NCBI RefSeq assembly: GCF_000196355.1
Contig: NC_007614.1
Span: 1,650,001-1,682,000, forward strand
DNA length: 32,000 nucleotides
Direction of reading: 5' to 3'
From: Nitrosospira multiformis ATCC 25196
GTDB taxonomy: Bacteria; Pseudomonadota; Gammaproteobacteria; Burkholderiales; Nitrosomonadaceae
Below the pieces are notes generated by a model that was not told the origin of the DNA, did no database searches, and worked only from the letters and a program-made list of their open reading frames with translations. Shown in pieces: positions 6,978-23,240 of this stretch. The stretch's first letter is position 1. Each line of letters starts with the position of its first letter. The position numbers were made by a program, and so were the translations under genes.

Positions 6978-7271
6978 TCAGGGAAGGGTTTCTGTGATGC
7001 AATCCAGTTTCGCCTTTATGGTCTCCTTTACATTGCCTGCATTCAGTGCGGCGCACGAGGATATTTCCGGAATGGGAGATGCCGGCTTGGATTTTGGCTT
7101 CGAGACCTCCACGGGATTCATCGATGTTTGCGGTTTTACCGTCGAAACGTGGGGGTCCACGGGGGTTTCGTTCGTCAGCGGGGGTTTGTTCGTCACCGCC
7201 GGTTCATTCGTCGCCAGGGGCGTAAGCATGGTGCACGACGCCAGAAGGGAGGCTCCCAGCAAATACCTCAT
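6978..7271 (-). CDS. Proline-rich lipoprotein, o-spanin-like
   Basis: Lipobox LLASC after MRYLLGAS. The mature part is Pro/Thr-rich and has two further Cys. Its ATGA start overlaps the stop of the upstream membrane/coiled-coil gene. Confidence 0.55.
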   Translation of the reverse strand: MRYLLGASLLASCTMLTPLATNEPAVTNKPPLTNETPVDPHVSTVKPQTSMNPVEVSKPKSKPASPIPEISSCAALNAGNVKETIKAKLDCITETLP

Positions 7272-7579
7272 GCCTTTCTCCCCCTAGCCCATTTCTCGAT
7301 GATTCTGTCGAGCTTGTCATTGAATTCCTTCATCGTTTCACGCTGCTCGGCTCTCACCGATTTGAGTTCCTCATCGAGGCGTTCATTGGTTCTTTCCTGA
7401 TACAGCTCTCCTCGTTTCAGCGTCGCGATATCATTTTGCACCGTGTTGTACGTGGCTACGCCAGATGCAACCAAACCCGCCACTGCAATAATTCCACCGA
7501 AGGATAATGTGTAGGTGGATGGTCCACGCCGCCTCTCGACCCTGTTCGCGATCTCTTGGTCGCCTTCATCTTCTGCCAT
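7268..7579 (-). CDS. Single-TM, coiled-coil membrane protein, i-spanin-like (or holin-associated)
   Basis: I prefer the ATG at 7579 (MAEDEGDQ...), 2 nt after the upstream stop. It has one TM segment (FGGIIAVAGLVASGVATY) followed by a charged helical region (RTNERLDEELKSVRAEQRETMKEFNDKLDRIIE). Confidence 0.5.
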   Translation of the reverse strand: MAEDEGDQEIANRVERRRGPSTYTLSFGGIIAVAGLVASGVATYNTVQNDIATLKRGELYQERTNERLDEELKSVRAEQRETMKEFNDKLDRIIEKWARGRKA

Positions 7580-7581
7580 GA

Positions 7582-7758
7582 TCAGGACAAACCCCATAAA
7601 ACTATTGCGAACACAACCGCACCCAGCAATATTGGAGCGGTCCATTTCGATTCCTTCAGCTTTTCCAATAAACCGTCTGCGCGGACTTCAGCTGCGGCAC
7701 GTTGACTTTCCACTTCTTCCTGGATGGCTTTGATGCGCTTGCGTTGAAACATGGTCAC
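7582..7758 (-). CDS. Small membrane protein, holin candidate
   Basis: AGGAGG at 7771..7766 lies 7 nt before the GTG at 7758. The product MTMFQRKRIKAIQEE...WTAPILLGAVVFAIVLWGLS has a C-terminal TM. The track start (TTG at 7803) would add a second hydrophobic segment, but it lies inside a terminator hairpin. Confidence 0.45.
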   Translation of the reverse strand: MTMFQRKRIKAIQEEVESQRAAAEVRADGLLEKLKESKWTAPILLGAVVFAIVLWGLS

Positions 7759-8441: not shown

Positions 8442-8785
8442 ATCTCGCTCTGCTCCAATAAACCGTTACCCTGGACCTTCCTGTTGGCCATGTGCGCCGC
8501 CACGAGCAGCACTTGTTGCGTTTTCTCGCTGTGCTTCACCATCTCATTACGGAAAGATTCCGTAGCTGCAGCGCCCTTGCGGGATTCGTTGGCAGTGTTG
8601 ATCATCAACGTGGGCAGCCAGCCTATAGCGCACCCCCATGAATCGGTTTCCTGTCCCGTATTGGTATTTACCCCGCGCACCTGCACATACCATGGACATC
8701 GATAAAGGACGGGTTTGCTGTCCTCGATCTTAAGCTCTTCACATTTTGCCTCCAGCGGACAATTCGCTATGCGTATTTCCATCAA
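8432..8785 (-). CDS. Hypothetical Cys-containing protein (117 aa)
   Basis: The ORF overlaps both neighbours. It has four Cys (CPLEAKCE...RCPW...WGC). Function unknown. Confidence 0.5.
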   Translation of the reverse strand: MMEIRIANCPLEAKCEELKIEDSKPVLYRCPWYVQVRGVNTNTGQETDSWGCAIGWLPTLMINTANESRKGAAATESFRNEMVKHSEKTQQVLLVAAHMANRKVQGNGLLEQSEICE

Positions 8786-9678
8786 TCCTTACTCGCTATG
8801 ATTATGTCGATGTATTGCACGGCAAGGTTGATGGCCGTGCCGGTAAAAATATGGCTGTGGGAGCCACCACCCCCTGTGCCGGCATCTGTAATTGGCATCC
8901 CGGTAATAATTCCACCTCCTCCACCGCTGGGGTTAGCCCCTCCGCCTGATGTCCCATATACACTCAAACTATGCGTATGCGCCGGTATCTGCGCCGAAGT
9001 CAATGTCGTCGCACTGTTCCAACCCGAAACTGCCTGCGACGTGAAGGCTGACGTGAACGCGACTGACCCCCCCGAACCGCCACCGGCACTTCCTACAACA
9101 CGCAGCGCCTTATTGTGATGCGTCGTGACCTGAGTCCAGCCTGTCGGGGCCGTCGCCTGAAAAAATGACATAACGGTTCCAGGGGGAATGAGGCTCGCAG
9201 GCGCAGCGCCTAGAGTCTCTCTTGCGGTCGCTGCATTATCATCATCCAGCAAGCTCCGGATATAGGAACTCAGATTCGCCAATGCAGCTGTGCCTGGTCC
9301 AGTAAAATACGCCATCTTATCGGCTGACGTTTCCAGGCCGCCAAGCGCCTGGAGATTTGGATTTGCAAGAGATTCCTGCAAGGCGATGTTGGTCACGCCG
9401 GCAACGAAATAATCGCCTGCTGCCCAGGTACGGGGAGCCGTACCGTCCAGTCCTCGTCCTCCTTGCGCGATGGTTAAGCTGTCGCTGGTACGTGCCTCGA
9501 TTTTCACGATTTCCCGGTTGCCGGAAGCATCCTTGAATATCCCATAAAAATAATCGCCGATGCCGGGCGATGGAAAGAGAACGCCCTTTCCGGCCTCTAT
9601 TGTGAAGCTCAATCCCGTTGTTCCGCTCGGGGCAGAACTGATAATGGCCTTGCCAAAATTCGAGAACTTGAGTCCCAT
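8782..9678 (-). CDS. Tail fiber protein with C-terminal phage tail-collar domain
   Basis: N-terminal fiber-like region (FPSPGIGDYFYGIF.D.SGNREIVKIEARTSDSLTIAQGGRGLDGT). It also has an ARETLGA motif, a Gly-rich stretch, and PTGW...IPAHTHS...GGSHSH...YIDIIIASK, typical of tail-collar domains. Confidence 0.8.
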   Translation of the reverse strand: MGLKFSNFGKAIISSAPSGTTGLSFTIEAGKGVLFPSPGIGDYFYGIFKDASGNREIVKIEARTSDSLTIAQGGRGLDGTAPRTWAAGDYFVAGVTNIALQESLANPNLQALGGLETSADKMAYFTGPGTAALANLSSYIRSLLDDDNAATARETLGAAPASLIPPGTVMSFFQATAPTGWTQVTTHHNKALRVVGSAGGGSGGSVAFTSAFTSQAVSGWNSATTLTSAQIPAHTHSLSVYGTSGGGANPSGGGGGIITGMPITDAGTGGGGSHSHIFTGTAINLAVQYIDIIIASKD

Positions 9679-9681
9679 GTT

Positions 9682-10299
9682 TTATCCTCGTCTCAGGATC
9701 GCAGTCTGAAGGGGAGCTCTGGCATAGCTTCTGGCTACTCTCATGCCTGCTGCTGCCGTTTTGATAATGAACTGTTGCTGGTGATAGGGGGCTAGCTGGA
9801 TATTGGTATAGGGTTTTTTAGGTGACAGCATTAGCCGCCCCATCGCGCCGTGAGTGATGGCTTCGCGGTATTCGTGGAATAACTCGTCATCAATCCCTGC
9901 ACTGGTGGCCGAAGGTTTTAACGCGACCCTTATTGCCAATACTCCGTTACTATCGGGAGTTGGAATCAGGGTCAGCGAAGATGGACCACCAAGCACATAC
10001 CGCGGTTTGCCAGTTTGGCGGCTCCAGATCGTGATGTTCTTCTCGCAGGCAAAAGGCTCTATTTCTTCTCCATCCAGCACTGCATTTATGATGGCATGAA
10101 TTTCCGTGCCTTCAGGTGGAGAAAAGGAATACTCTGCAATGCCCCCCATTACCAGGACAGGCTGATGCTTGGTTTGCCAAGCCAGGGATTGCTCACAAAA
10201 CGCCACAGAAGATTGGCGCAACGCACTGTCGGCTGCCGCAGCAGGACACTCAGGCAAATCTGGCATAAGCAGATCATAAAAATCGCTCCAGAATTTCAT
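9682..10299 (-). CDS. Hypothetical virion protein (205 aa), neck/tail position
   Basis: Clean ORF overlapping the upstream gene by 4 nt. Assigned by context only. Confidence 0.6.
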   Translation of the reverse strand: MKFWSDFYDLLMPDLPECPAAAADSALRQSSVAFCEQSLAWQTKHQPVLVMGGIAEYSFSPPEGTEIHAIINAVLDGEEIEPFACEKNITIWSRQTGKPRYVLGGPSSLTLIPTPDSNGVLAIRVALKPSATSAGIDDELFHEYREAITHGAMGRLMLSPKKPYTNIQLAPYHQQQFIIKTAAAGMRVARSYARAPLQTAILRRG

Positions 10300-10628
10300 G
10301 GATGCGCCTCCAAGCCGAACAACTGCATGAAGAGTGCGGCACGGCCGGAATTGACGTGCTCATCGTCGGACATTTCTGCTCTGGCCGTAACATAATCCGC
10401 TACTGTCTGGAGGTATATAGGCGGTAATGGAAAAGCATCATCCAAGGCGCGTTCCCCATCAGGCAGGTTGTTGAAGCTGCCTATGAACAGATCCGGTCGC
10501 CGTTTGAGTATCTGCAGCATCCCCTGATTGGCAAAGGACAATAATACGGTGTCCGCATAACGCGTCTTGTCGTCATCATTGAGCGGAATGCGAGCCAGCT
10601 CGACAATTGAGTGATATGATAATGGCAT
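10296..10628 (-). CDS. Hypothetical protein (110 aa), possible head-tail connector by position
   Basis: Clean ORF with a 1-nt TGATG overlap with the upstream gene. No firm motif. Confidence 0.55.
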   Translation of the reverse strand: MPLSYHSIVELARIPLNDDDKTRYADTVLLSFANQGMLQILKRRPDLFIGSFNNLPDGERALDDAFPLPPIYLQTVADYVTARAEMSDDEHVNSGRAALFMQLFGLEAHP

Positions 10629-11002
10629 CAGTCCGGCATCTCGTTCTTGGAAAACAGGGCAATCACTTTATGCCGTATCGTTCCCTCGCTTTGGCGCTTG
10701 TCCAGTCGTTCGTTGTATTTGCGCTCGGCAAACTCGAGCAGTGCTTTTTTACCCATGGAATGAAAGTCGATCACCGGCAGGGGTTCTTCAACCGGTTTCT
10801 CTGCTTGCGCCAGCCCGATTGGCACAACGTTATCCAGCGTCTCATCGTGGAGGCGCACCCAGGTGTCGGGGTAAACGAGCAGCCTCTCGGAAACTTCAGC
10901 GCTTACATTCCGCACTTGACCCGGTTCCCAGCGCAATCCCACTCCATTGATGCTGTCAATCTTGATGCCGGCGGCAATATATTTGACTTTTGGCATATGC
11001 AA
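10628..11002 (-). CDS. Hypothetical protein (124 aa)
   Basis: Clean ORF, the first gene after the terminator at 11008..11045. Confidence 0.55.
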   Translation of the reverse strand: MHMPKVKYIAAGIKIDSINGVGLRWEPGQVRNVSAEVSERLLVYPDTWVRLHDETLDNVVPIGLAQAEKPVEEPLPVIDFHSMGKKALLEFAERKYNERLDKRQSEGTIRHKVIALFSKNEMPD

Positions 11003-11587: not shown

Positions 11588-12859
11588 TTAAAGCGGCACA
11601 GCCGAGTCAACCGCAATCACACCAAAGTCGGTGGGTACCCTGAAACCTGTTCCATCGTCGATAGAGAAACGGGTTTTCGCTTTGCCGCAAACCTTCTCAC
11701 CCATCACTTCCAGGTTACTTTCAAAGTTATACCAATGCTCCTTCCATCCGAACTGCATTCCGCTGACCCTGGTTTTGCCATAAGCGACCCCCAGTGCTTG
11801 TGCGCCTAATAATAATCCGCGCTCGATCGCGTACCCGGCAGTCAACGCTCCATTGACAGCCTGATCGGTTTCTGTGGCAGTTGTCGCGTTTGCTGCGGTG
11901 ACTATCTTTGTGCTTTCCCCAGGCATAAAACGGATCGCACGCTCATTCTTGATCACCAGAATGCCATTCCACATCCCAACCTCACCGGCAAACAGGGGGT
12001 GGCGCTCGTCAAAATATGCCGCCCGATTGATGGCATTCTGCTGGAAAGCACGTAACGAACCTTCGGTCAAAAGGAGCGAATACTGATTGGGTGTGGCGAG
12101 AAATACCCACATCTTGGAAGTCTGAGCGGCTCGGTCCCCTGCCAGTTTGACGGATTGCAATGGCTGATCCATGTCATCAAGCCTCTTCCGCAGCAGATCC
12201 AGATGCGACAAGCGCAGGGCGTCCGTTGAAACGACGGATCCCAACTGCTGTCCCCCTGAAGTCAGATTGGCGCCGTTCACTACAAAATGACGATTATAGG
12301 TAGGGGCCTTCACGGGATTCACCATGATGGAACTGAAGTTCGGCGCGCTTTGAAGCGGTACTGTCCAGTCCGAACCGGTTTGCGAACCGCGTGCTCCTGC
12401 AAGATGCACCAGGGTTTCCTGAGCGTCGAGACGGGGGAAATAACCTGACAATTGCGCCAGGGCAATTTCCCGCAACTGATGCTTGGTGCGTTGCTGCGAC
12501 ATGCTGCCACCGGCATCGATAACCTTACTGGATAGATCGATCTTGATCTCCATCGAGGAAAACGAAAGCGCGCTGCCCCGTCCTTCACGATTGACGTCGC
12601 CCATCAATGGTTCACCGCCCACCGTATCGACCAGATCGAGCGATACGACATCGCCAGCACTTTTCATTAAATTATCGATTCGCACGATAGGCATGCCCGG
12701 ATTTGTTTGACCGGCAATTTTCTGCATTGCTACTGAAGGCTCGACCGGGCCCACAAGACTGTCAATCGCTGTGGATCCTTTGAGCGTGTTGGCGAAGAGC
12801 GCCGCGCTATAATGTTTGACTGCCAGTGAACTTCCGCTTGCTACGTTTGTTTCAGCCAT
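11588..12859 (-). CDS. Major capsid protein (HK97 fold; resembles the N4-gp56-type family)
   Basis: 423 aa, immediately after the scaffold gene. The pattern KHYSAALF...IVRIDNLMKSAGDVVSLDLV..GEPLMGDVNREGRGSALSFSSMEIKID matches, from memory, the N4-type capsid family. A weak hairpin follows at 11536..11562. Confidence 0.8.
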   Translation of the reverse strand: MAETNVASGSSLAVKHYSAALFANTLKGSTAIDSLVGPVEPSVAMQKIAGQTNPGMPIVRIDNLMKSAGDVVSLDLVDTVGGEPLMGDVNREGRGSALSFSSMEIKIDLSSKVIDAGGSMSQQRTKHQLREIALAQLSGYFPRLDAQETLVHLAGARGSQTGSDWTVPLQSAPNFSSIMVNPVKAPTYNRHFVVNGANLTSGGQQLGSVVSTDALRLSHLDLLRKRLDDMDQPLQSVKLAGDRAAQTSKMWVFLATPNQYSLLLTEGSLRAFQQNAINRAAYFDERHPLFAGEVGMWNGILVIKNERAIRFMPGESTKIVTAANATTATETDQAVNGALTAGYAIERGLLLGAQALGVAYGKTRVSGMQFGWKEHWYNFESNLEVMGEKVCGKAKTRFSIDDGTGFRVPTDFGVIAVDSAVPL

Positions 12860-12873: not shown

Positions 12874-13836
12874 TTAATCAAGTTCGGCTCTCAGGGCTGC
12901 CGCCTGATGCGTGGGCATCTTCATCAGCTTCTGAGCAAGTTCAAATGGGCTCAGACTCTCAAGTTGCTCACGTTCAGAGGCTGGATTTGCTCCACCCTGA
13001 ATATCCGATAGAGTTACAGGCTTCCTCACCGGGGCTGCCTCAAGCTTGGCTTGCAAATCCGCTTTCATCATTCCCGGATCGGGTTTCTTTTTTGGAGTGG
13101 AGGCCTCGGGCATGATTGCCCTGACACGCCGGACAACCTCCTGGAACCGTTCCGCATAAGGCTTTCCTGCCCACTTTGTATTGGTTCTCAGAATTTCATC
13201 CTGCTTGAGTGCTTCTTCCCACGCGTCAGCGTCATTACTTTCCCAATGCGCGAGATCAGGATTATTGTCTTTTGCCTCTGCGACTTGCTCTGCAGTACTC
13301 AGCTGGTTTCTGCGCTCGGATTCCTCTTTTTCGCGCTCCAACTCCCGCAGTGTTTGCTCCAGCTTTTCGCCTTGCTTCCGGCTTCCCTCAAGCAGCGCGC
13401 TGAGTACCTGATGAAGTTGAGGCATTTCTTCTTTCAGAGCCTCCAGATGTATCTTGAGTTTTTCATCCAGCGCACCGGTCTCTACTTCCTTTGCTTCCTC
13501 TTTCCGTATCAGGAATTCATCGAGTTTGCCTTGGGCGGATTTTAGCTGCTCACGCAGCGCCGAGTTCTCTACCCGCAATTCCTTGTGCTTCTGGTAGGGA
13601 ATGGTCCCCTTGCCGCTTTTATTCAGAACGACAGGCTCATCTTCACTTTTATCCCCGCCCGCCTTGCCGGGCATGTCGTCGTTAACGGGGGAGCTGGATT
13701 TCTCCGTTTCCTTTTCCTCAGATGCTTCCTGCCTGCCTAGAATTTCTGCAAGCTTGTTCGGGTCGCTTTCCAATATTTCGATTTGTTCCGGCGTAAGATT
13801 TGCGATTTGCTCATCCGTAAGCTGATCCACTTTCAT
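12874..13836 (-). CDS. Scaffolding protein
   Basis: 320 aa, highly charged and helical (EE/KE-rich, LEQTLRELEREKEESERR), located just before the capsid gene. Confidence 0.75.
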   Translation of the reverse strand: MKVDQLTDEQIANLTPEQIEILESDPNKLAEILGRQEASEEKETEKSSSPVNDDMPGKAGGDKSEDEPVVLNKSGKGTIPYQKHKELRVENSALREQLKSAQGKLDEFLIRKEEAKEVETGALDEKLKIHLEALKEEMPQLHQVLSALLEGSRKQGEKLEQTLRELEREKEESERRNQLSTAEQVAEAKDNNPDLAHWESNDADAWEEALKQDEILRTNTKWAGKPYAERFQEVVRRVRAIMPEASTPKKKPDPGMMKADLQAKLEAAPVRKPVTLSDIQGGANPASEREQLESLSPFELAQKLMKMPTHQAAALRAELD

Positions 13837-13982
13837 CTTTCCTCCAAACTACTTAACCCAGTGAGCGGGCCTGCCTTGAGCAGGGTTCAAAAAAACCCCT
13901 GAACAACACAAGAAGTGCATTGATCAGAGGTTTCCAGGACTACTACTGCAATACTGCCGCTAGCGTTCGCATGAAAGCCAGT

Positions 13983-14010
13983 AAAAAACCGCCACTGTTT
14001 CCAGAGGCGG
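13983..14010 (-). terminator. Intrinsic terminator T1 (GAAA tetraloop)
   Basis: The minus strand reads CCGCCUCUG-GAAA-CAGUGGCGG followed by U6, 24 nt after the stop of 14034..14771. Confidence 0.8.
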
Positions 14011-14033
14011 CTCGATAGAGTCCGATTGAAACA

Positions 14034-14771
14034 TTATTTCTGCAGCATTTTTAAGGGCGACACTGGCACTTCCCCCATAACCGCCGGAAAACTTTCGTTG
14101 CCAGTCCATTGCCTGGCGTTCCGCACCCACATTCTCACCATGTCATAGTCCTGAGTAAGCGTTCTTGGCCCCACCTTGAAGTAAGGACCAGTTGCGTCCT
14201 CATAAGCCGTGGGCACGTTGTATTCCCCGAAAATCTTCATGCGGTCCAGATAAACCTCGCGCCAGCCGGTAGCGTTTGTTTGTAGATTTGCGCGAATCGT
14301 GACGTTATGCCACTTGCCTTTTTCCACCTTCCTTGCTGCTACAATCCTTCCGGTTGAAGTTACTGCCGGAAGCGTAGTCGCGGGGACGGCCACAAAAAGC
14401 GTTTCCTGGTCGACAATGCGCAAACCGATATTGACGTGCTTGACAGTCAATTCTTCGCCTGGGTCTGGTGTCGGATACCACGATCCAAGTCCCGAGAAAT
14501 TGTTTGTGGTCCATGAAGGATCGATCATGAAATCCAGCGAGGACCAGCATTCGCCGGAATTAGGAAATGCAGGAAAACTGACTTCGGTTCTGTGACCGAA
14601 ATTTGTTTCTGTATCTGGGCCGTACAGGGTCAGGCGTGCCGCTCTATCCACAATCTCGATACGATCCCTCATTCCGTCAAGCATCTTATTTCCGGGCCCC
14701 TCGACGCCATTTGCCTGTAAATACGTACCGGCGAAATCGACATCGAGAGGAAAATTGAATAACTGAGTCAT
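14034..14771 (-). CDS. Polysaccharide-lyase-like beta-jelly-roll protein, copy A (245 aa)
   Basis: The motifs HRTEV (res 60-64), KHVNIG, KWHNVTIR, GWREVYLD and YFKVG (res 197-201) recall the R-x-E-x-R / H / YFKAG signature of PL7-type lyases. The call is tentative and made by eye. Confidence 0.6.
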   Translation of the reverse strand: MTQLFNFPLDVDFAGTYLQANGVEGPGNKMLDGMRDRIEIVDRAARLTLYGPDTETNFGHRTEVSFPAFPNSGECWSSLDFMIDPSWTTNNFSGLGSWYPTPDPGEELTVKHVNIGLRIVDQETLFVAVPATTLPAVTSTGRIVAARKVEKGKWHNVTIRANLQTNATGWREVYLDRMKIFGEYNVPTAYEDATGPYFKVGPRTLTQDYDMVRMWVRNARQWTGNESFPAVMGEVPVSPLKMLQK

Positions 14772-15649
14772 CAGAACGCGCTCCTCAAAATGGGATTGCC
14801 CGGATTCGAGCGAAGCTGCTGAAAAACACTCGTCAGAGTTTTCACGGAGGGCATGGGATAGCTGGCGGGCAGCCTGAGTATTACCAAAGCCCTCGTAGCC
14901 GTTGCGATGCCCGAACTGGATCTGGCAGGCGCAGGGTACGATGTGCCGATATTGAAGGTGTTGGAATTGCGTGTATCTATCCCGCCGGTTAGCGGAGTAT
15001 ATGAGCCTTCAGAGAGTGAATACTCCTCGTCCACCCATATGCCGTGCTGCCCCCCCTGCCCACCCCCGCTTATGGCTATGCCAAAACTGTGCAAGCCGCC
15101 GGAAATGCTCTTGTGCCCATTTGAAGAGTAAACTTCGGTGGCACCTGACAGTACGAAACCGACACGTCCATTTGTTTGCAGTAAAATGTTAATCCCCCGT
15201 TGTCCTGGAGACGTACCATAACCATCGCCCATCATCGGGGTAGGGATTGTTTCTGCCGTAACCTTGCCAAGCCACCAGATAATCAGCTTCTCGCCACCTG
15301 CATAGTCATAGTTCAGATTGGGAATGCGCAATACGGAATCGGTTGCGCCAGTTGCCGGGTCAACCGTGGACGCATAGCCGGAATTCGGCGTCCAGAGTTG
15401 CGCGACCGACAGGTTCACGCCCCGCGAAGCATGGTTTATTCCTGTCAGATCGTAAAATTTCTCGTCGTCTGCAACCTGCTTTCCCGTGAAGCCGTGAAAG
15501 TGGTAATAAGGATGGAATCCGTCGGGATCGTAAGCTTCAGCACTCTCCAGTGTTATCAGAATGTCCTCAACACTTTTATCGAAGGATGCAACAGTTCCCT
15601 TCCCGTAAAGATATCCTGATAAAGTTGTGTTGCCCAGAAATCGAATCAT
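14771..15649 (-). CDS. MIRFL-N-terminus protein with LamG/ConA-like lectin domain, copy A (292 aa)
   Basis: LamG-like strand pattern (FYDLTG, KLIIWWLGKV, GRVGFVLSG, LHSFGIAISGG..HGIWVDEEY, NTFNIGTSY, RALVILRLPAS). The stop overlaps the start of the 245-aa gene by 1 nt (TGATG). Confidence 0.65.
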   Translation of the reverse strand: MIRFLGNTTLSGYLYGKGTVASFDKSVEDILITLESAEAYDPDGFHPYYHFHGFTGKQVADDEKFYDLTGINHASRGVNLSVAQLWTPNSGYASTVDPATGATDSVLRIPNLNYDYAGGEKLIIWWLGKVTAETIPTPMMGDGYGTSPGQRGINILLQTNGRVGFVLSGATEVYSSNGHKSISGGLHSFGIAISGGGQGGQHGIWVDEEYSLSEGSYTPLTGGIDTRNSNTFNIGTSYPAPARSSSGIATATRALVILRLPASYPMPSVKTLTSVFQQLRSNPGNPILRSAF

Positions 15650-15676
15650 ATATTTGCCCTTTCTGTTTATCCAAAT

Positions 15677-15706
15677 AAAAAAGCCGCCCCTGTTTCCAGA
15701 GGCGGC
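15677..15706 (-). terminator. Intrinsic terminator T2 (GAAA tetraloop, 10-bp stem)
   Basis: The minus strand reads GCCGCCUCUG-GAAA-CAGGGGCGGC followed by U6, 23 nt after the stop of 15729..16466. Confidence 0.85.
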
Positions 15707-15728
15707 TCAATAGAGTGCGATTGAAACA

Positions 15729-16466
15729 TTATTGCCGCAGCATTCTCGAGGGCGACACTGGCGCTTCCCTCATCACCGTCGAGAAACTTTCATTGCCAGT
15801 CCATTGCCTGGCGTTCCGTACCCACATTCTCACCTTGTCATAATCCTGGACGAGCGTTCTCGGTCCCATCTTGAAGCTGGGACCAGTCGCGTCCTCATAA
15901 GCCGTGGGCACGTTGTATTCCCCGAAAATCTTCACGCGGTCCAGATAAACCTCGCGCCACCCAACAGCAGTTGTTTGCAGATTTACTCTGATTGTTACAT
16001 TATGCCACCGTCCTTGTTGTATCTTGGCAATTGCAACTGTCTTGCCCGTACTACTTACAGCAGGCAATACCGCTGCAGGGACATTCACAAAGAGCGTATC
16101 TCTATTCACGAGACGCAAACCGATATTGACGTGCTTGACAGTCAATTCTTCGCCTGGGTCTGGTGTCGGATACCACGATCCAAGTCCCGAGAAATTGTTT
16201 GTGGTCCATGAAGGATCGATCATGAAATCTACCGAGGACCAGCATTCGCCGGAATTAGGGAATGTTCCGAGCTGTATTTCGGTTCTATAGCCGTAGTTTG
16301 TTTGCCGGTCCGTACCGTACAACGTTGTTCTGGCTGCTCCGTTTATGATCTCAAGTCGATCGGAAATTCCGCTCAGCATCTTATTTCCCGGGCCCTCGAC
16401 GCCATTTGCCTGTAAATACGTACCGGCGAAATCGACATCGAGAGGAAAATTGAATAACTGAGTCAT
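15729..16466 (-). CDS. Polysaccharide-lyase-like beta-jelly-roll protein, copy B (245 aa)
   Basis: Paralog of 14034..14771, with ~79% aa identity by hand alignment and a mosaic pattern. The YFKVG motif reads SFKMG here. Confidence 0.6.
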   Translation of the reverse strand: MTQLFNFPLDVDFAGTYLQANGVEGPGNKMLSGISDRLEIINGAARTTLYGTDRQTNYGYRTEIQLGTFPNSGECWSSVDFMIDPSWTTNNFSGLGSWYPTPDPGEELTVKHVNIGLRLVNRDTLFVNVPAAVLPAVSSTGKTVAIAKIQQGRWHNVTIRVNLQTTAVGWREVYLDRVKIFGEYNVPTAYEDATGPSFKMGPRTLVQDYDKVRMWVRNARQWTGNESFSTVMREAPVSPSRMLRQ

Positions 16467-17344
16467 CAGAACGCGCTCCTCAAAATGGGATTGCCCGGAT
16501 TCGAGCGAAGCTGCTGAAAAACACTCGTCAGGGTTCCCACGGAGGGCATGGGATAGCTGGCGGGCAGCCTGAGTATTACCAAAGCCCTCGTAGCCGTTGC
16601 GATGCCCGAACTGGATCTGGCAGGCGCAGGGTACGATGTGCCGATATTGAAGGTGTTGGAATTGCGTGTATCTATCCCGCCGGTTAGCGGAGTATATGAG
16701 CCTTCAGAGAGTGAATACTCCTCGTCCACCCATATGCCGTGCTGCCCCCCCTGCCCACCCCCGCTTATGGCTATGCCAAAACTGTGCAAGCCGCCGGAAA
16801 TGCTCTTGTGCCCATTTGAAGAGTAAACTTCGGTGGCACCCGACAGTACGAAACCGACACGTCCGTTTGTATATAATGCGATACGAATGCCTCCCTGTCC
16901 CGGGGACGTACCGTAACCATCGCCCATCATCCGGGCGGGGATTGTTTCTGCCGTAACCTTGCCAAGCCACCAGATAATCAGCTTCTCGCCACCTGCATAG
17001 TCATAGTTCAGATTGGGAATGCGCAATACGGAATCGGTTGCGCCAGTTGCCGGGTCAACCGTGGACGCATAGCCGGAATTCGGCGTCCAGAGTTGCGCGA
17101 CCGACAGGTTCACGCCCCGCGAAGCATGGTTTATTCCTGTCAGATCGTAAAATTTCTCGTCATCTGCAACCTGGTTTCCCGCGAAGCCGTGAAAGTGGTA
17201 ATAAGGATGGAATCCGTCGGGATCGTAAGCTTCAGCACTCTCCAGTGTTATCAGAATGTCCTCAACACTTTTATCGAAGGATGCAACAGTTCCCTTCCCG
17301 TAAAGATATCCTGATAAAGTTGTGTTGCCCAGAAATCGAATCAT
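16466..17344 (-). CDS. MIRFL-N-terminus protein with LamG/ConA-like lectin domain, copy B (292 aa)
   Basis: Differs from copy A at 9 of 292 residues by hand count, with the same TGATG coupling to its partner. Confidence 0.65.
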   Translation of the reverse strand: MIRFLGNTTLSGYLYGKGTVASFDKSVEDILITLESAEAYDPDGFHPYYHFHGFAGNQVADDEKFYDLTGINHASRGVNLSVAQLWTPNSGYASTVDPATGATDSVLRIPNLNYDYAGGEKLIIWWLGKVTAETIPARMMGDGYGTSPGQGGIRIALYTNGRVGFVLSGATEVYSSNGHKSISGGLHSFGIAISGGGQGGQHGIWVDEEYSLSEGSYTPLTGGIDTRNSNTFNIGTSYPAPARSSSGIATATRALVILRLPASYPMPSVGTLTSVFQQLRSNPGNPILRSAF

Positions 17345-17404
17345 ATTTGCCCTTTCCGTTTATCCAAATATTAAATGGTTCTCTACCCGAAACGCCTTTG
17401 TTTA

Positions 17405-17644
17405 TATAGGGAACAGTTCCCTTGCCACTTTTGTTCAGAATGACAGGCTCATCGTCACCTTCATCGTCGCTCTCCTTGCTAAGCATGGCATCCTTCACAT
17501 CGGGGGATTTCTCCTTTCCCTCTTCCTCCGGTGCTTCCTGCCTGGCTAGTACCTCCAAAAGCTTGCCCGGATCGCTTTCCGATATCTCGATTTGTTCCGC
17601 TGAAGGTTTACAATTTGCTCATCCGTAAGCTGATCTACTTCCAT
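17405..17644 (-). pseudogene. Scaffolding-gene 5' remnant (truncated and frameshifted)
   Basis: The minus strand from the ATG at 17644 gives MEVDQLTDEQIVNL, against MKVDQLTDEQIANL in the scaffold. A 1-nt deletion then shifts the frame. The other frame continues ...LEVLARQEAPEEEGKEKSPDVKD...DDEPVILNKSGKGTVPY, matching scaffold residues ~30-81. Homology stops after PY at ~17405. Confidence 0.85.
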
Positions 17645-17782
17645 CTTTCATCCAAATGCTTAACAGTGAGGCCTGCCTTAGCAGGATTGAAAAAAGAAAC
17701 CCCTGAACAGCACAAGAATTGCGTTATCCAGGGGTTTCAGGGATTACTACTACATTATTGCCACTAGCATTCGTATGAAAGC

Positions 17783-17814
17783 AAAAAAAAACCGCCAATG
17801 TTTCCAGAGGCGGT
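17783..17814 (-). terminator. Intrinsic terminator T3 (GAAA tetraloop)
   Basis: The minus strand reads ACCGCCUCUG-GAAA-CAUUGGCGGU followed by U9, 30 nt after the stop of 17844..19415. Confidence 0.8.
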
Positions 17815-17843
17815 GGCTCTTGATTGATTGTTTGGTTCGATCT

Positions 17844-19415
17844 CTATCTATATCTCAATGTATAACGCGGAGTGTTCGTTACGTCTTCCACTGCCCCAAT
17901 ATTGGGAGTGTTATAAAACTGTTTTCCGTAATAATCCTTGCCTCCAAGATAAGCTCCAGCCCGTTTTACTTTTGAAGAGTGGGGGCGATAATTGGGATCG
18001 AGGCCCGGGTTTACATTGAGACTGGAAGCATTTAAAGCTTGGGTTCCTGATTTGAAGCCAAAAAATACGTTGTTTGATTCTCGGTTCCAAGCTCCCGAGT
18101 CATACCGAATATCAAACGCCCCAAGATCTTTGGCTGTGAATATGTTGTTTTTGCAAAAATTGGAATCAGCGGGAAAGGTTGTTGGATTCCCGTATATCGC
18201 CGCTAGGTCACAATTTATGAATGTGTTATTGAAGATGTTGCTCACCCGCCCAGGAGTCTGGTTTCCGTAAAAAACTCCCATGTGACAATTCTTTATGACA
18301 TTCCCGTAGCAAGTGATGTTGGTAGCCTCATAGATGATTCCAATTCCGGCTCCGGCTGTGAAATTAGCGGGGCCCACCAAGTTTTCAAGGTAGTTACCAT
18401 AGGCGAGACATCCGTCTGCTCCGTGGTCAAACAGAAGACCACAGCCATCGTAGATAACTGAAGAGATGTTCTTCGCAGAGTTGTGCCTTATGATATAGCT
18501 TCCATACATAATATTGGCAAACCCGGTTGTACCCTGCAGGCCGTCCGCTATATTATTTTCGATTACATTCTGACCAAAGTCTGAGGTATCTGTTTGAATG
18601 AATCCCCCCACGACAATCCCCCCGCCAAGATCGCCTACTCTAGTTTGATTATTTATCTTATTCCCATAAATCTTCACACCCTTGTTACGACCAGTTTTGG
18701 GGACATACGCCTTGATCGCAGCGCCGCCGCAATTGGTAAATGTGTTTCTATGGATGTCGAGATCGTATATATGAACATTGGACGGATTTAATTCTGTTCC
18801 TAATGCGTTTGTGCTGGCGAGAAGCACAATCACTCCCTGCTGGGCCGAACATCCAGTGAAGGTATTGTTCGTAATTTTAAGGTTCTCGATATATGTATTA
18901 ATCCCACTTTGCGGCCACCAGCTAATTGCCGCTCCGGCACCTCCGCCAACTCCGCCATTGAACGTGTTGCCATCTATTGTGGTATTGATCCAGCTCCAAG
19001 TGTTTATCGAGAAAAATTCGATGCACGGGAAGGACGAACCGTAGAAGGTACAGTTTTTAATTACAAGACCGGTCTGGGGAGTTCCACTAGGCACAATGCA
19101 TCTGTTTTGAGATGTAATTGTCAGTGCCTCAACGGTTATTGAAGAACGATTTACATTGAAATAGATATTGTTGCCCCTAAAAGAAAGCGATCCAGACTCA
19201 GATGAGTGGTTCCCCCTGATAGTGACGCCAGTAACATTGCCTAGCGCAATAACTGAAGTATATGTGTGCGCTCCACAGATGTATAAAGTGTCTCCGGTAT
19301 TTACTCCTGAAGTGCCCCAAACAATCTCGGACCAGCCTCCCCAGGCAAAATCATAAGACTGCCCGTTGCGCGTTCCGCTGTGTGATGTGTCAGGACGAAT
19401 GAACCACTCCGCCAT
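17844..19415 (-). CDS. Right-handed parallel beta-helix protein (pectate-lyase-like tailspike/depolymerase candidate), 523 aa
   Basis: Repeated N-x-(I/F)-x-N-N/C turns (IKNCTFYG, IDGNTFNGG, ITNNTFTGC, IHRNTFTNC, IYGNKINN, IENNIADG, IRHNSAKN, YGNYLEN, YGNVIKNC, FNNTFINC, CKNNIFT). The N-terminus WFIRPDTSHSGTRNGQSYDFAW is typical of such enzymes. Confidence 0.75.
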   Translation of the reverse strand: MAEWFIRPDTSHSGTRNGQSYDFAWGGWSEIVWGTSGVNTGDTLYICGAHTYTSVIALGNVTGVTIRGNHSSESGSLSFRGNNIYFNVNRSSITVEALTITSQNRCIVPSGTPQTGLVIKNCTFYGSSFPCIEFFSINTWSWINTTIDGNTFNGGVGGGAGAAISWWPQSGINTYIENLKITNNTFTGCSAQQGVIVLLASTNALGTELNPSNVHIYDLDIHRNTFTNCGGAAIKAYVPKTGRNKGVKIYGNKINNQTRVGDLGGGIVVGGFIQTDTSDFGQNVIENNIADGLQGTTGFANIMYGSYIIRHNSAKNISSVIYDGCGLLFDHGADGCLAYGNYLENLVGPANFTAGAGIGIIYEATNITCYGNVIKNCHMGVFYGNQTPGRVSNIFNNTFINCDLAAIYGNPTTFPADSNFCKNNIFTAKDLGAFDIRYDSGAWNRESNNVFFGFKSGTQALNASSLNVNPGLDPNYRPHSSKVKRAGAYLGGKDYYGKQFYNTPNIGAVEDVTNTPRYTLRYR

Positions 19416-19991
19416 TTAATCCCCCACGAAATGCAGCACTCGATAGTATTCGAGTTTAAGCGCATCGCCATTGCTTGCTCTCTGTCCGGTAATATCGAAC
19501 GTGACACTGTTTGCAAAGTTAATAGTGTAAGTTGCTGGAGTATCCGATCCTGCCGTTACGTACGCATTGTCGTAAGGTTGTATTTGCGCCGTCAGGGAAT
19601 TACGATTTGCCAGAACGATGAGCGGCGCTTCTTTGACAGACATCGTGCGGGTGGCACCGTAAACTGTCACACCGTCAACCCTGACTTTCAGAATCTTGTT
19701 GTTCGCGCTACTGCTGAATGTCCACACCGGCTCGATCTGGAGGATGCTGTTGACGCCGATGATTCCCCCATGAACGGTAAACGACCCCAAAACCTCATCC
19801 GTCGCCGTCAAGGCGCATGAGGCAGCCACAGCCGAACTCGCCAGTACCTCTACCGGCTTAGTAACTGCCGGATAATCTTCGGCATCACCTTGAGCGATCA
19901 AAATCGCCTCAGTCACATCATCAAACCTGGAAATTGCGCCCTTACCGTATCTGTATCCCGCCACAGTTTCATCATTCAGAAACCGAATCAT
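19416..19991 (-). CDS. MIRFL-N-terminus protein (191 aa), partner of the beta-helix protein
   Basis: AAGGAG lies 7 nt before the ATG, 13 nt after the portal stop. The first ~40 aa align with the 292-aa proteins. The stop TAA abuts the ATG of the 523-aa gene. Confidence 0.65.
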   Translation of the reverse strand: MIRFLNDETVAGYRYGKGAISRFDDVTEAILIAQGDAEDYPAVTKPVEVLASSAVAASCALTATDEVLGSFTVHGGIIGVNSILQIEPVWTFSSSANNKILKVRVDGVTVYGATRTMSVKEAPLIVLANRNSLTAQIQPYDNAYVTAGSDTPATYTINFANSVTFDITGQRASNGDALKLEYYRVLHFVGD

Positions 19992-20004
19992 CTTGTTACT
20001 CCTT

Positions 20005-21999
20005 TTATGCGGATAATGCGTTACCTATCTGACAATCAGCAATCTTCTCCGCCTCCAGACGGAATTTAGCATCATCCATATCCTCTTTATGCGCCTGCGC
20101 ACGCGCTTTCAAGTCAAGTCCGCATGCCTTAAGCTGCAGCTCAGCCTCCCCCAATCTCTGCTGCAACTCCCCAATCCGCCCTTGCGCCTCCTGTATCATC
20201 TGCTGCACTTGCTGCTGCAAAGCCTGAAACGGGGAATTATCGTCAATGCCTGCCACTTGCCTTAATTGATGGGCCAACTCATGCCGGTTCGGGACATTGG
20301 ACAGCTCGAGCATTACCGGATAAAGTACGGCCTGAAACCGAGGGGGCGCGGCTTGTACGATTTGCGACATAGCTTGCAACTGCTGCGCGCGAAATGTCGG
20401 AGTAGCAGGAATATCCTCAAGCACGACTTTGACCATTGCAGAAGCAATGTCGTTGTGTACCAACCCGTCATCCAACTGGCGATTGAAATAAACCACCTTT
20501 GGTTTATTACCTTGCTGGACTGTAATTTGCGCGGGTCTTCCAATCAGGTCCTCCTTGATCAGCGCAAGAAGTTGCTGGCCAACAAGTCGGCGAGCATGTC
20601 GAAAATTATCATTGGGCTCCGCCAACACGGTCGACCCCTGTTCCACGAGACTGTTGATCGCCACACCGCTGCTTGCTGAGGTATGCGCTCCCAGCATAGT
20701 GCGGTAGATTCCGCCCACTTCCTCGATCCTGCGCTTGCGTTCCTGCACGAGCTGAAACACTTGAGCGGCAAGCTGGTGCTCGCGTATTACCCTGAAGCCA
20801 CTGGTATTCCTTCGCTGAGAGTTGAGGATGGTCATCGAGCGCAGACTGCTTATATTATTCGCCACCTCCTGATAGGAATTCTGGCTGAGATCAAGCGCAT
20901 CATTGTCCACTTCGACTTTTACCGAATTGAGGACTTCATAGAGAAGAATATCCAGATCGATAATCTGATCCTGCGGTCCCCGCATGTCACGAATCAATCC
21001 GTAGGGAGCTCGACTCCTATCCTTGCGAAAGCACCAGAATGGAACATATGGAAAATCTGAATGGGGTAATGGACTCGGAACATCCATGAGTTTATGCGGC
21101 CCCAACCAGATCGAGACCCGCATCCTGGTGAGAACCGATTTCTGGACCTGCACGAGACCTTGGGCAACCGCTGCCTGATGGTATGGGTTATCCTCGCGGT
21201 ATTCGATTATCTTTCCATCGGTCAATACCAGGACGTATGCATCCTCGAAATGCCGATACCACAACTCGGAGAGCCTGACCATACCCGAGTTCCGGTTCAG
21301 GTAATCTTCCTGGGTGCGATTCCATGCCTGCTCGATTTCATATGCTCGCGCCAAGCCGTTATCATAACCTTCATACACGTCAGTCCCATTCCACCCCTTC
21401 CAGCTATTTGCAATGATTTCCGCCCGGTCGGGGAACATGAGGGCGGCCTGAAGCCGGTCTATCCACTTATCGCGTCGCAAATATCGCGCATCGGACAAAT
21501 CCGGCTCCCTTGAACTCCAGTCCCAATAAATTTCGTTGCGGTGCACCTCCCGGACACGATATGGATATTTGAGCGCATCAAATTCCCGGGATATTTCTAC
21601 CCAACCAATGCCCGCCCGAATCATGCTGGAATACGCGTCTGACATGGCCCGGTCAGCGCGTGACTCGGTTTCGGCCTCCTTGATTTTTGCGGAAAGACCT
21701 TCCGCAATTTCTGCCTGACTCTCATCATCCGCCGTCACCCTGTAATCCGTTCGGCTACGCGCTTCCAATCCCAATACCGCGTTGATCGTCGGTTTGATCA
21801 GATTGGAATCCTGGGGCGGGATACCGGCCATCTTCAGTCGTCCGATCACCTCCGAGCTGGTCTGTGCGCCGTCGTAATAATCACAGTCCGTGTCCGAGTC
21901 CGACCGCCACTTCGGTTGATCCCGAATATCGCGGCATATTTTGTCGTAAGCCTCAATCGAAATATCTGCCGTAACACCTGCCTCAGTCATGCCCGCCAA
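20005..21999 (-). CDS. Portal protein (664 aa)
   Basis: Large ORF overlapping the terminase stop by 13 nt. The long C-terminal Gln-rich coiled coil (QALQQQVQQMIQEAQGRIGELQQRLGEAELQLK) resembles the P22-type portal barrel. Its position between terminase and head genes supports the call. Confidence 0.75.
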   Translation of the reverse strand: MAGMTEAGVTADISIEAYDKICRDIRDQPKWRSDSDTDCDYYDGAQTSSEVIGRLKMAGIPPQDSNLIKPTINAVLGLEARSRTDYRVTADDESQAEIAEGLSAKIKEAETESRADRAMSDAYSSMIRAGIGWVEISREFDALKYPYRVREVHRNEIYWDWSSREPDLSDARYLRRDKWIDRLQAALMFPDRAEIIANSWKGWNGTDVYEGYDNGLARAYEIEQAWNRTQEDYLNRNSGMVRLSELWYRHFEDAYVLVLTDGKIIEYREDNPYHQAAVAQGLVQVQKSVLTRMRVSIWLGPHKLMDVPSPLPHSDFPYVPFWCFRKDRSRAPYGLIRDMRGPQDQIIDLDILLYEVLNSVKVEVDNDALDLSQNSYQEVANNISSLRSMTILNSQRRNTSGFRVIREHQLAAQVFQLVQERKRRIEEVGGIYRTMLGAHTSASSGVAINSLVEQGSTVLAEPNDNFRHARRLVGQQLLALIKEDLIGRPAQITVQQGNKPKVVYFNRQLDDGLVHNDIASAMVKVVLEDIPATPTFRAQQLQAMSQIVQAAPPRFQAVLYPVMLELSNVPNRHELAHQLRQVAGIDDNSPFQALQQQVQQMIQEAQGRIGELQQRLGEAELQLKACGLDLKARAQAHKEDMDDAKFRLEAEKIADCQIGNALSA

Positions 22000-23240
22000 C
22001 CTTTCATATTAATACCTCGCGCACTCGCCGCCGGTTTATCCTCCTCGATTGCCATGGCAAAATAGCGAAAGGCATCGGCTGCATGGCTGTGATAATCATG
22101 TAAGGGCCTTGCGCTGAATTGACCGGAATCACGATCGACATCAAATCGATAATGTCTCAGGCTCTGCAGGCCTTCTGCACAATTCTGTTCATCAAAATAG
22201 CAACGTGGAAAGATGGTTCTCGCCGCGTTGATACCATCATGAATGGAGAGATTTGGCACGATTCTTACCTTTCTTCCCGCCGCAAGCATAATTTCCTCCA
22301 CGCTGCGCCCGGTTGCCAACGTTCGCGCTCTGGCATCGTGCGGCAACCAGTCTGTACCATACATATACCCTTTGTTTTGCAGCACTCCGATATAATGCTG
22401 AATTGGCATCTGGCTATTACTGTAGTAATCGATCAATCTGAGTTCGTTGCCAACAGTCTGCGCAAACCAGATGCTGGTGTTGTCTGCCCAACCAAGATCG
22501 AAGAAGGTGTGGACCGGCTTTGCCTCATCATATGGCACGCTTCGTATCCTTCCTTCTTCCTGCGCCAATCGAAGCTCCTTCGCATATACCGCTCCCTCCA
22601 GGGTTACCCTACAATTCCCTTCCCATACATTCTGGTAAGCATCCGGATCACGCGCTTTCAGTCCATCCTTCTCCCGTCGCAGTATCTCCGGAAACCACGG
22701 GTTGTCATTCCAATTGATTTTTACGACGACAGCGCCCGCAGGGGGATTGACTACAAATCGCTGATGAGTCTCGTCAGTATTGAGTTCAGGATTGTAGGTC
22801 ACCCAGATTTCCGACCCCTCTTTACGAATGGTCGGAATAAGCGTATCCCAACTTGTCTTGCTCACTGTCTGGGCTTCTTCCACCCAGACTCTATCCACAC
22901 CTTCAAACGACTTGATCCTGGTTACGTTGCTATGCAGACCGGCAAAGATGAACTCGGAACCGTTTATTCCCCGTATAACGTTATTGTGCACCTCGTAAAA
23001 TGAATTTAAGCCGATGGCTTCTATCTGTGCTTTCAATAAATGATGCACGGATTCGACGATAGAATTCTGAAACTCTCGTACGCATAAAATACGCAATGGA
23101 GTTGCAGCCGCCTGAATCAACAATGCCCTGGCAACACCCCAGCTTTTTGCACCCCCCCTTCCCCCGTATAAGATTTTGTAACGTGCCGGCTCAAACAGAA
23201 ACCTGAGCTTTATCGGAAATTCAGCTCTATGGGAAGTCAT
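21987..23240 (-). CDS. Terminase large subunit
   Basis: Walker A YGGRGGAKSWG near the N-terminus, then VWVEEAQ (Walker B-like), and a C-terminal nuclease-like region (DLGWADNTSIW...DWLPHD). Overall it resembles PBSX/Terminase_3-type TerL. Confidence 0.9.
   Translation of the reverse strand: MTSHRAEFPIKLRFLFEPARYKILYGGRGGAKSWGVARALLIQAAATPLRILCVREFQNSIVESVHHLLKAQIEAIGLNSFYEVHNNVIRGINGSEFIFAGLHSNVTRIKSFEGVDRVWVEEAQTVSKTSWDTLIPTIRKEGSEIWVTYNPELNTDETHQRFVVNPPAGAVVVKINWNDNPWFPEILRREKDGLKARDPDAYQNVWEGNCRVTLEGAVYAKELRLAQEEGRIRSVPYDEAKPVHTFFDLGWADNTSIWFAQTVGNELRLIDYYSNSQMPIQHYIGVLQNKGYMYGTDWLPHDARARTLATGRSVEEIMLAAGRKVRIVPNLSIHDGINAARTIFPRCYFDEQNCAEGLQSLRHYRFDVDRDSGQFSARPLHDYHSHAADAFRYFAMAIEEDKPAASARGINMKGWRA

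Follow-up and report, generated by a model that had tools for sequence, protein, structure and literature searches.

The 32,000-nt window of Nitrosospira multiformis ATCC 25196 analysed here (NC_007614.1, positions 1,650,001 to 1,682,000, forward strand; all positions below are those of the window) represents a temperate short-tailed prophage with a P22-type portal, an Sf6-type TerS, a 933W-type capsid and SU10-type adaptors, in which three stacked cassettes of two coupled genes each stand between the portal and the scaffold gene. These gene pairs most likely act as host-recognition and depolymerase appendages that are unusual both in their place and in their two-protein form. The reading that we favour, with a probability of roughly 0.6, is that each cassette encodes a virion-anchored fibre or adaptor protein and an exchangeable glycanase docked to it, and that the cassettes are host-surface modules carried at the 3' end of the terminase-portal block. 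The product of the first gene would be a small, probably trimeric fibre or adaptor whose N-terminal anchor of ~42 amino acids (aa), here called the MIRFL domain, would dock onto the virion and whose distal domain, a TNF-like knob or a ConA-like lectin domain, would bind glycan and/or the partner protein. The product of the second gene, translationally coupled and anchor-less, would be a glycan-degrading enzyme (a beta-helix protein, a lyase resembling polysaccharide lyase family 20 (PL20) or, in relatives, a protein resembling glycoside hydrolases (GH)) that would ride on this distal domain and cut the extracellular polysaccharide (EPS) of the host during adsorption. Recombination in conserved flanks, around portal codon 590 on one side and the terminator and scaffold 5' end on the other, would exchange such modules between phages, and three enzyme specificities in one phage would broaden or secure its host range.

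The original prediction, made from the letters of the sequence, had placed in a portal-scaffold gap of about 6.1 kb three units, each with a small open reading frame (ORF) starting with MIRFL, a partner coupled by TAAATG or TGATG, and a terminator. The three units, their ORF coordinates, junctions and hairpins were all confirmed, and the gap measured 6168 nt, from the stop of the portal gene (20005) to the start of the scaffold gene (13836). Every gene of the region, from TerL through portal, cassettes and scaffold to capsid, is on the minus strand. The slot is bounded on the left by the portal gene (20005-21999; PF16510 P22_portal 1e-103, phrog_156), the ORF of which as listed begins at TTG and overlaps the end of the TerL gene (21987-23240) by 13 nt (21987-21999), and on the right by a gene for an acidic protein of 320 aa (12874-13836; phrog_479 1e-53, function not annotated), which we take for the scaffold gene from its composition and from its position between the portal and cassettes and the PF13252 capsid gene (11588-12859). 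Cassette 1 consists of ORF191 (191 aa, 19416-19991), starting 13 nt after the portal stop, and ORF523 (523 aa, 17844-19415), joined by a GAT-TAA-ATG abutment; the counterpart of ORF191 in one relative (L008) overlaps the portal gene. Cassette 2 comprises ORF292a (292 aa, 16466-17344) and ORF245a (245 aa, 15729-16466), and cassette 3 comprises ORF292b (292 aa, 14771-15649; 97% identical to ORF292a) and ORF245b (14034-14771), a diverged paralogue with 79% aa identity to ORF245a; both 292/245 junctions are TGATG overlaps of one base.

The three gene 1 proteins share the MIRFL domain at residues 1-42 (~50% identical between ORF191 and ORF292), for which the structural models of ORF191 and ORF292 predict the same beta-beta-beta-alpha-beta pattern, and among relatives the domain heads proteins of the K, L, Y5 and K304 types, that is, at least four unrelated types of C-terminal domain. 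A profile search with the 46-aa MIRFL domain was uninformative and returned only three short proteins. The AlphaFold2 model of ORF191 (mean predicted local distance difference test, pLDDT, 85.5) consists of this N-terminal domain followed by a TNF-like jelly-roll knob, and its Foldseek matches in the PDB include the BC2L-C N-terminal lectin, Pgp3, the receptor-binding domain of lambda gpJ and the carbohydrate-binding module (CBM) families CBM6/36. In BFVD the knob matched C-terminal domains of phage fibres and spikes, some of them annotated as Mtd-N, collagen-repeat, KP34 depolymerase or phi15 tail spike; ORF191 has 232 homologues, and among those listed nearly all are 190-191 aa long. In the ORF292 model (pLDDT 94, predicted template modelling score 0.87) residues 1-42 form the small domain, and the remainder is predicted to be a jelly roll of the ConA/LamG type, for which the top PDB match is the tailspike of the cyanopodophage Pan3 (9vyh_p, 269 aa; E 2e-7, template modelling scores 0.53/0.57, 11% sequence identity). 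The model had 217 PDB matches at E<=1e-3, among them the lectin domain of trans-sialidase, the Hc-N domain of botulinum neurotoxin (BoNT), CBM40, pentraxins and PL7 lyases, and by this jelly-roll structure ORF292 may be assigned to the ConA-like lectin/LamG fold. The earlier description of ORF292 as LamG-like thus holds for the predicted fold; the ORF292 sequence matched nothing in Pfam (including LamG, PF13385), PHROG or NCBIfam. Searches of Pfam, PHROG, NCBIfam and PADLOC likewise returned nothing for ORF191 and ORF523, and PDB profile searches gave no match for the ORF292 or the ORF191 family. The 292 family is undescribed and comprises at least 133 cluster representatives, in which a distal domain of ~250 aa is conserved and the N-termini are swapped, being of the MIRFL type, of a second type named after the core gene o124, of a "MATIV..KGS.LT" type, a PF07880 (T4_gp9_10) domain, a collagen stretch, or almost absent. 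Neither ORF191 nor ORF292 matched PF07880 or Gp10, and PF07880 was found only in a distant homologue of the 292 family, P0105.

The gene 2 proteins belong to enzyme families. ORF245a and ORF245b match PF14099 (Polysacc_lyase) with 49.2 and 46.9 bits, above the gathering cut-off of 29.9 (8e-13 and 4e-12), and partially match the PL20 glucuronan lyase 2ZZJ of the PDB (E 2e-4 for ORF245a), so that their earlier characterisation as lyase-like jelly rolls stands. ORF523 aligns with 23 partner proteins from the same slot of relatives at 18-90% identity; 14 of the 24 members of this family match PF13229 (Beta_helix; best 4e-18), nine match NosD, and the family profile matches a PL6 lyase weakly (E 0.0024). 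By homology to its PF13229-matching relatives, ORF523 is predicted to be a right-handed beta-helix and a putative glycanase; the original call of a beta-helix stands through the family and finds no Pfam match in ORF523 itself. Its N-terminus begins straight at a sequence resembling a beta-helix cap, and the gene 2 enzymes in general carry no anchor domain. Taken together, the Pfam, AlphaFold2, Foldseek and family-profile matches uphold the view that these are glycan-binding or glycan-cleaving folds such as occur in phage fibres and spikes. They also change the picture of the small ORFs, which had been treated as generic partners: they are instead fibre- or adaptor-like proteins bearing the anchor, paired with anchor-less enzymes in a two-component design.

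A portal search returned 38 genome loci and 74 viral contigs (designated by L numbers where needed), and about 69 distinct portal-to-scaffold regions were compared; the named genome loci were nearly all from Nitrosospira or Nitrosovibrio. The alignment of related prophages, which had been proposed as a check, shows that the content of the gap varies, and the idea of an expandable portal-proximal slot is borne out, with relatives carrying 0, 1, 2 or 3 two-gene cassettes of at least five pair types in this slot (slot 1). About 59 of the ~69 regions hold at least one cassette and eight are empty, with a gap of 0.2-0.5 kb. A cassette between portal and scaffold is thus the rule in this lineage; of the peculiarity formerly ascribed to the element only the stack of three is left, which among these regions occurs solely in the window prophage and in strain Nl7 (L011), two-unit stacks being found in L006, L013 and L051-54 (K with beta-helix, then L with lyase) and also in L034 and L073. 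The pair types include K proteins of 191 aa with beta-helix proteins of ~520 or 601 aa; K proteins of 199-201 aa (K200) with a protein of ~408 aa (X4) that has weak GH10/42/44 matches and a WNEPN motif; L proteins of 290-311 aa with a PF14099 lyase (L+PL); and Y5 proteins of ~250 aa with a protein of ~321 aa (X6) or a PF14099 lyase. In two variants an Ala/Thr-repeat stalk is inserted between the N-domain and the distal domain (L039, 422 aa; L086, 304 aa). Gene 1 almost always starts with MI[RK][FL], and among the pairs counted most have gene 2 at -4 to +5 nt from gene 1, whereas a few are separated by more than 11 nt. This varying junction frame led us to reject a read-through fusion of gene 1 and gene 2. 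Three relatives depart from the common layout: L027 (6009-8879) has extra slot genes unrelated to the cassettes (273, 183 and 283 aa), L091 (5242-9472) has one K gene followed by two beta-helix genes, and in L028 (12377-16562) the stack is rearranged and includes a further protein of 354 aa as well as a lyase homologue of 273 aa.

Between close relatives, sequence identity is typically lost near portal residue 585-590 and regained where the scaffold gene starts, and from these alignments the C-terminal ~75 codons of the portal gene appear to be the variable edge of swapped segments, the breakpoints marking the flanks of cassette exchange. A conserved adaptor with an exchangeable enzyme would be expected to leave a conserved gene 1 protein and partners with a variable centre and conserved termini, and this pattern was found for K191: mean identity is 68% for K191 and 39% for its beta-helix partners, 17 comparisons combine an identity of 85% or more in K with one of 55% or less in the beta-helix partner, and the first and last ~50 aa of the beta-helix partners are 63-74% identical as compared with 23-50% in the centre. 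Pairing is strict, K occurring with beta-helix or GH-like proteins, L with lyases and Y5 with X6 or lyases. Strict pairing, together with tight coupling directly after a fibre-like gene, which is the classic layout of a fibre and its chaperone, might also suggest that the gene 1 product is a fibre and the gene 2 product a chaperone dedicated to its assembly, or a tip adhesin, as in Stf/Tfa or gp37/gp38. We regard this as quite improbable, because the gene 2 products are proteins of 245-600 aa from enzyme families (PF14099, PF13229/NosD, weak GH10/42/44 with the WNEPN motif), no chaperone family was matched in Pfam, PHROG or NCBIfam, and one K gene can precede two beta-helix genes (L091).

The distribution of N-terminal domains also bears on the proposed anchor. 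A second slot (slot 2) lies, in some relatives, between the 146-aa post-capsid gene and the 124-aa core gene o124, examples being L003 (311 aa with a 246-aa lyase), L044, L076, L066, L067 and L100. In the gene 1 proteins of slot 2 an o124-type N-domain replaces the MIRFL domain and is fused to the same L or K distal domains (L003, L100). The MIRFL domain thus heads different distal domains, and slot 2 and other phages attach other N-termini to the same distal domains, which is the logic expected of an anchor. In the window, o124 (10628-11002, minus strand; phrog_19474) has homologues in Pseudomonas phage 8P and Achromobacter phage CF418P1, and its N-terminal ~50 aa are reused in slot 2 proteins (L003 14690-15625, L100 7374-8057). 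Homology between the MIRFL domain and the o124 N-domain was not supported (hhalign probability 1%, E 0.05), and the two may be analogous anchors. Of the eight phages in which slot 1 is empty, four carry a cassette in slot 2, so that nearly every member of the lineage carries at least one cassette. Beyond the lineage, the L+PL pair, always adjacent, occurs in the unrelated phage contigs L123, L124 and L125: after a gpJ-like central fibre gene in L124, after a tail-fibre gene in L125, and in L123 (6399-11721) with TerL on one side and a portal that belongs to another family (phrog_12082) on the other, next to a portal gene once more but on its opposite side. The TNF-like knob and short N-terminal domain of ORF191 could also point to a tail needle or plug with a terminal knob rather than a lateral fibre: the Sf6 tail needle has a TNF-like knob, some relatives have a helical-repeat shaft, and the K191 protein is highly conserved and very common. 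A needle site, however, takes a single trimer, whereas three paralogues (191, 292a and 292b) share the N-domain; in addition, an enzyme gene is coupled to K in every case, an o124-type N-domain can head the same knob in slot 2 (L100), and the Sf6 knob was not among the top Foldseek matches, all of which makes a needle highly improbable.

Each gene pair is followed, 20-30 nt downstream, by a 28-nt GC-rich hairpin with a run of six to nine U (repeat family D6, minus strand). With folding energies calculated for 61-nt windows around the hairpins, these are T1 (17780-17813, hairpin 17786-17813, CCGCC..GGCGG with U9; -14.6 kcal/mol), T2 (15675-15708, hairpin 15681-15708; -25.8 kcal/mol) and T3 (13977-14010, hairpin 13983-14010; -18.6 kcal/mol), the last being the backbone terminator. 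The cassettes had been described as terminator-insulated, and in this respect the description has to be revised. A terminator-like hairpin 15-35 nt past the last gene before the scaffold is nearly universal among relatives, and in empty-slot phages it stands directly after the portal; its presence in empty slots marks the terminator as part of the backbone, where it closes the terminase-portal block, and not as an insulator owned by a cassette. As the cassettes lie upstream of it, at the end of the operon, added genes should have no polar effect. The scaffold leader (13849-13934, minus strand) contains a second hairpin with a U-run (U7; 13893-13934) and then a small CCTGC/GCAGG hairpin ahead of the ribosome-binding site. 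A copy of the second hairpin and U-run, T1b (17690-17738, hairpin 17696-17738, minus strand; inverted repeat I9, -26.7 kcal/mol), aligns with 13893-13934, and this element stands ahead of both the scaffold gene and a pseudogene copy of it described below. The leader hairpins are kept in both copies (13849-13982 and 17657-17785), with some changes that preserve pairing, and are candidates for an attenuator, a processing site or an mRNA stabiliser; an Rfam search of the intergenic hairpins found no family and a single chance microRNA match.

The terminator at the end of every cassette, the prophage nature of the element and the frequent location of morons between late genes might suggest that the cassettes are lysogenic-conversion morons that remodel the host surface, for example in superinfection exclusion. 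They do resemble the morons of lambdoid late operons in being extra genes between conserved morphogenesis genes, followed by terminators. In contrast to morons, which have their own promoter and terminator, the cassettes are translationally coupled to the portal gene and near-universal in the lineage, and their terminators belong to the backbone. With ORF191 13 nt from the portal stop, and overlap in L008, there is neither room nor signal for a promoter; promoter-like sites were not enriched (seven found as compared with 8.3 expected from shuffled sequences) and none lies upstream of ORF191. No secretion signals were seen in the cassette proteins, and PADLOC gave no defence-model match for any of them. 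A role as morons is therefore very improbable.

The stack of three retains traces of how it may have formed. The segment 17378-17656 duplicates the scaffold 5' end and its ribosome-binding site (13564-13848) at 78-89% identity (repeats D4, D5, D8 and D11), and 17378-17644 (minus strand, ATG at 17644) corresponds to scaffold codons 1 to ~83. This copy reads MEVDQLTDEQIVNL and then runs out of frame; because a 1-nt deletion after about codon 14 shifts its frame, it is a pseudogene. The whole scaffold leader, with terminator, second hairpin and U-run, and CCTGC/GCAGG hairpin, is duplicated ahead of it, and the extra terminators in the window are copies of this backbone segment, duplicated together with the scaffold 5' fragment during stacking. 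Units 2 and 3 form a 1695-bp tandem duplication (13983-15677 and 15678-17372; repeats D1 and D2) of 89% identity overall, which is a mosaic: the 292 proteins are 97% identical as compared with 79% for the 245 proteins, and in two patches of the 245 genes nucleotide identity is as low as ~60%. Purifying selection acts on both duplicates, with a ratio of nonsynonymous to synonymous substitution rates (dN/dS) of 0.27 for the 292 copies (dS 0.07) and 0.23 for the 245 copies (dS 0.61). N. multiformis Nl7 (L011) has the same order of three units, and its lyase copies are orthologous to 245a (94%) and 245b (91%), so the duplication is older than the split between the window prophage and the Nl7 prophage. 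The same order in this independent and diverged genome rules out an assembly artefact. In L006 an unbroken ORF, called as 89 aa, spans the scaffold-like fragment. We interpret the pseudogene as a remnant of the recombination event by which cassette 2 came to lie behind cassette 1: a phage arranged as portal, K, beta-helix, terminator, leader and scaffold would have been joined illegitimately, at about scaffold codon 83, to the region just upstream of the L+PL cassette of another phage, which would have produced the architecture of L006 and L013 with an ORF over the scaffold-like fragment, frameshifted in the window. A later tandem duplication of the unit of L+PL and terminator (1695 bp) would have added the third module, after which the lyase copies may have diverged, or one may have been replaced by recombination, and the 292 genes stayed nearly identical.

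Several points weigh against virion-anchored adaptors with docked enzymes. Strict pairing could reflect linkage alone. The pattern of a conserved gene 1 and a variable gene 2 is absent in L+PL and in K200+X4 and is therefore not to be generalised from K191. The fold relative Cip1, a PF14099-fold protein, showed no significant lyase activity (PMC3764139), so that activity cannot be assumed for ORF245a and ORF245b, and ORF523 by itself has no Pfam match (E<=1) and no sequence match in the PDB (E<=10). An ordinary tail-fibre gene is present at its usual place (8782-9678; phrog_8469, 4e-18), and the cassettes are possibly not the primary receptor-binding proteins for this reason. Many homologues of the 292 family, moreover, have almost no N-terminal extension, and an anchor is thus not obligatory for the distal domain. 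This last observation and the absence of an anchor domain or, by inspection, a signal peptide on the enzymes would both fit free, non-virion glycanases and lectins that are made late and released at lysis to loosen biofilm or EPS for the spread of progeny, the N-domain then serving some role other than docking. We nevertheless consider free enzymes unlikely, because the N-domains are lineage-specific and swapped according to slot and phage, the stalk insertions of L039 and L086 are typical of fibres, the knob resembles C-terminal domains of fibres and spikes, the top PDB match of the lectin domain is a phage tailspike, and the pair occurs at tail-fibre positions in other phages. Given the swapping of N-domains, the enzyme families, the lack of promoters and signal peptides and the near-universal presence of the cassettes, each of the alternatives is less consistent with the data than an anchored adaptor with a docked enzyme. 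A more specific version of the latter, which we put forward as tentative and on balance doubtful, is that the MIRFL and o124-type domains are virion anchors of a kind not described before, which would hold conserved lectin or knob adaptors close to the head or the portal vertex and not on the tail tip, each adaptor with a non-covalently bound, freely exchangeable glycanase; mounting there would match the location of the genes within the head-gene block and the recurrence of L+PL next to the portal gene of L123. If true, this would be a stackable two-component depolymerase system encoded in the head module, with small PL20-like lyases as virion enzymes.

Models in which a depolymerase is docked to an anchor exist for G7C and K1-5 and for the Klebsiella groups KP32, KP34 and JD001 (Latka et al. 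2019, PMC6872550). In these anchor-branch receptor-binding systems of podophages (G7C gp66-gp63.1, the K1-5/SP6 gp37 adapter, KP32/KP34/JD001) the first protein has a conserved N-terminal anchor, and the adjacent gene encodes a depolymerase that has no anchor and whose terminal peptides are conserved around a catalytic centre that varies; modules pass horizontally between phages, and a phage may carry several of them to widen its host range (PMC6872550). The cassettes share this layout, with a putative depolymerase as second protein, and, as here, the first protein of KP34 group A and the JD001 groups amounts to a truncated anchor that has no enzyme (PMC6872550). The conserved, shared N-terminal domain and the anchor-less second protein with conserved termini and variable centre were both found in the window prophage and its relatives. 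The cassettes differ in that the first protein has no T4gp10-like docking domain, the presumed platform being the TNF-like knob or the ConA-like lectin domain; in that they include small PL20-like jelly rolls, whereas typical phage receptor-binding proteins such as the P22 tailspike have a central beta-helical domain (PMC6872550); and in that they lie between portal and scaffold or after the capsid gene and not at the tail-fibre locus. Single-chain tailspikes (P22 gp9, the KP34 depolymerase, the phi15 tail spike) likewise combine an N-terminal particle-binding domain, a beta-helix enzyme and a C-terminal beta-sandwich, but the cassettes split these blocks over two polypeptides, anchor with knob on one and beta-helix on the other. 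The Pan3 tailspike (9vyh chain p) is like ORF292 in structure and size, yet no sequence-profile match between them was found. With Stf/Tfa of lambda, S/U of Mu and H/G of P2 the cassettes share the exchange of two genes at conserved flanks and lineage-specific N-terminal anchors, and in L124 the L+PL pair stands after the gpJ-like gene, where Stf/Tfa would be; gene 2, however, encodes an enzyme-family protein here and not a small chaperone.

Modular receptor-binding proteins, anchors with docked depolymerases and cassette exchange are thus already known. New are the position in the head-gene block right after the portal, with a second slot downstream of the capsid gene; an anchor domain not described before, adaptors with a knob or lectin domain in place of T4gp10-like domains and the small PL20-like lyase partners; and the documented path of stacking with a scaffold pseudogene, in phages of soil ammonia oxidisers. 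Literature searches found nothing directly relevant on a described equivalent, on Nitrosospira prophage biology or on the Pan3 structure, and a tblastn search of ORF292 against 50,697 INPHARED phage records gave no match and no cultured phage with the 292-aa family, in agreement with the original prediction, which knew of no described equivalent. Ammonia-oxidising Nitrosospira drive soil nitrification and very little is known of how phages recognise them; the locus, with at least five types of cassette in ~69 prophages, supplies a collection of candidates for host-range determinants and for EPS-degrading enzymes, and a natural system for the gain of specificity by stacking modules at the end of an operon, before the terminator, without polar cost. 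If adaptor and enzyme do act together, the anchor-branch principle extends to new docking folds and small lyases, which also suggests a plug-in site for engineering. For annotation, the locus is a warning that receptor-binding genes can occur within the head-gene block.

As to the phage itself, the closest proteins are from N. multiformis, and the portal is 100% identical to that of the IMG/VR contig UViG_2671180074 (L049). The capsid is a distant relative (37-50% identity) of those of Achromobacter phage CF418P1 and Stx2 (933W-type) phages, and in CF418P1 portal, scaffold-position gene and capsid gene follow each other directly. A megablast search of positions 13000-21000 against the phage collection and Escherichia coli genomes gave no match. 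Fibre genes had also been expected elsewhere in the element, which was confirmed for 8782-9678 and could not be confirmed for 562-2082 (minus strand), a 506-aa ORF without family match that shows, by eye, degenerate ~20-aa repeats in its middle (G..Q....G.I.Q.H.L). Two adjacent genes of 110 and 205 aa at 9682-10628 (minus strand) both match PF24175 (SU10_adaptor), which points to a pair of paralogous head-to-tail adaptor rings like those known from Pseudomonas phage Pa223. The lysis cassette (6372-7645, minus strand), with a PF00959 lysozyme, a 97-aa lipoprotein-like ORF and a 125-aa membrane or coiled-coil ORF, lies amid structural genes, between the tail-fibre region and the gene of a 678-aa virion protein. 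An apparently frameshifted or truncated remnant of an IS3-type transposase (3014-4274, minus strand; HTH_21 and rve core) adjoins a 127-aa ORF on one side and the 678-aa virion protein gene on the other, so that this copy of the prophage may be damaged. The packaging end is flanked by a host gene for a thiamine-pyrophosphate enzyme (26221-27987, minus strand), which was also found in L003 (457-2241) and suggests that the two prophages share an integration neighbourhood.

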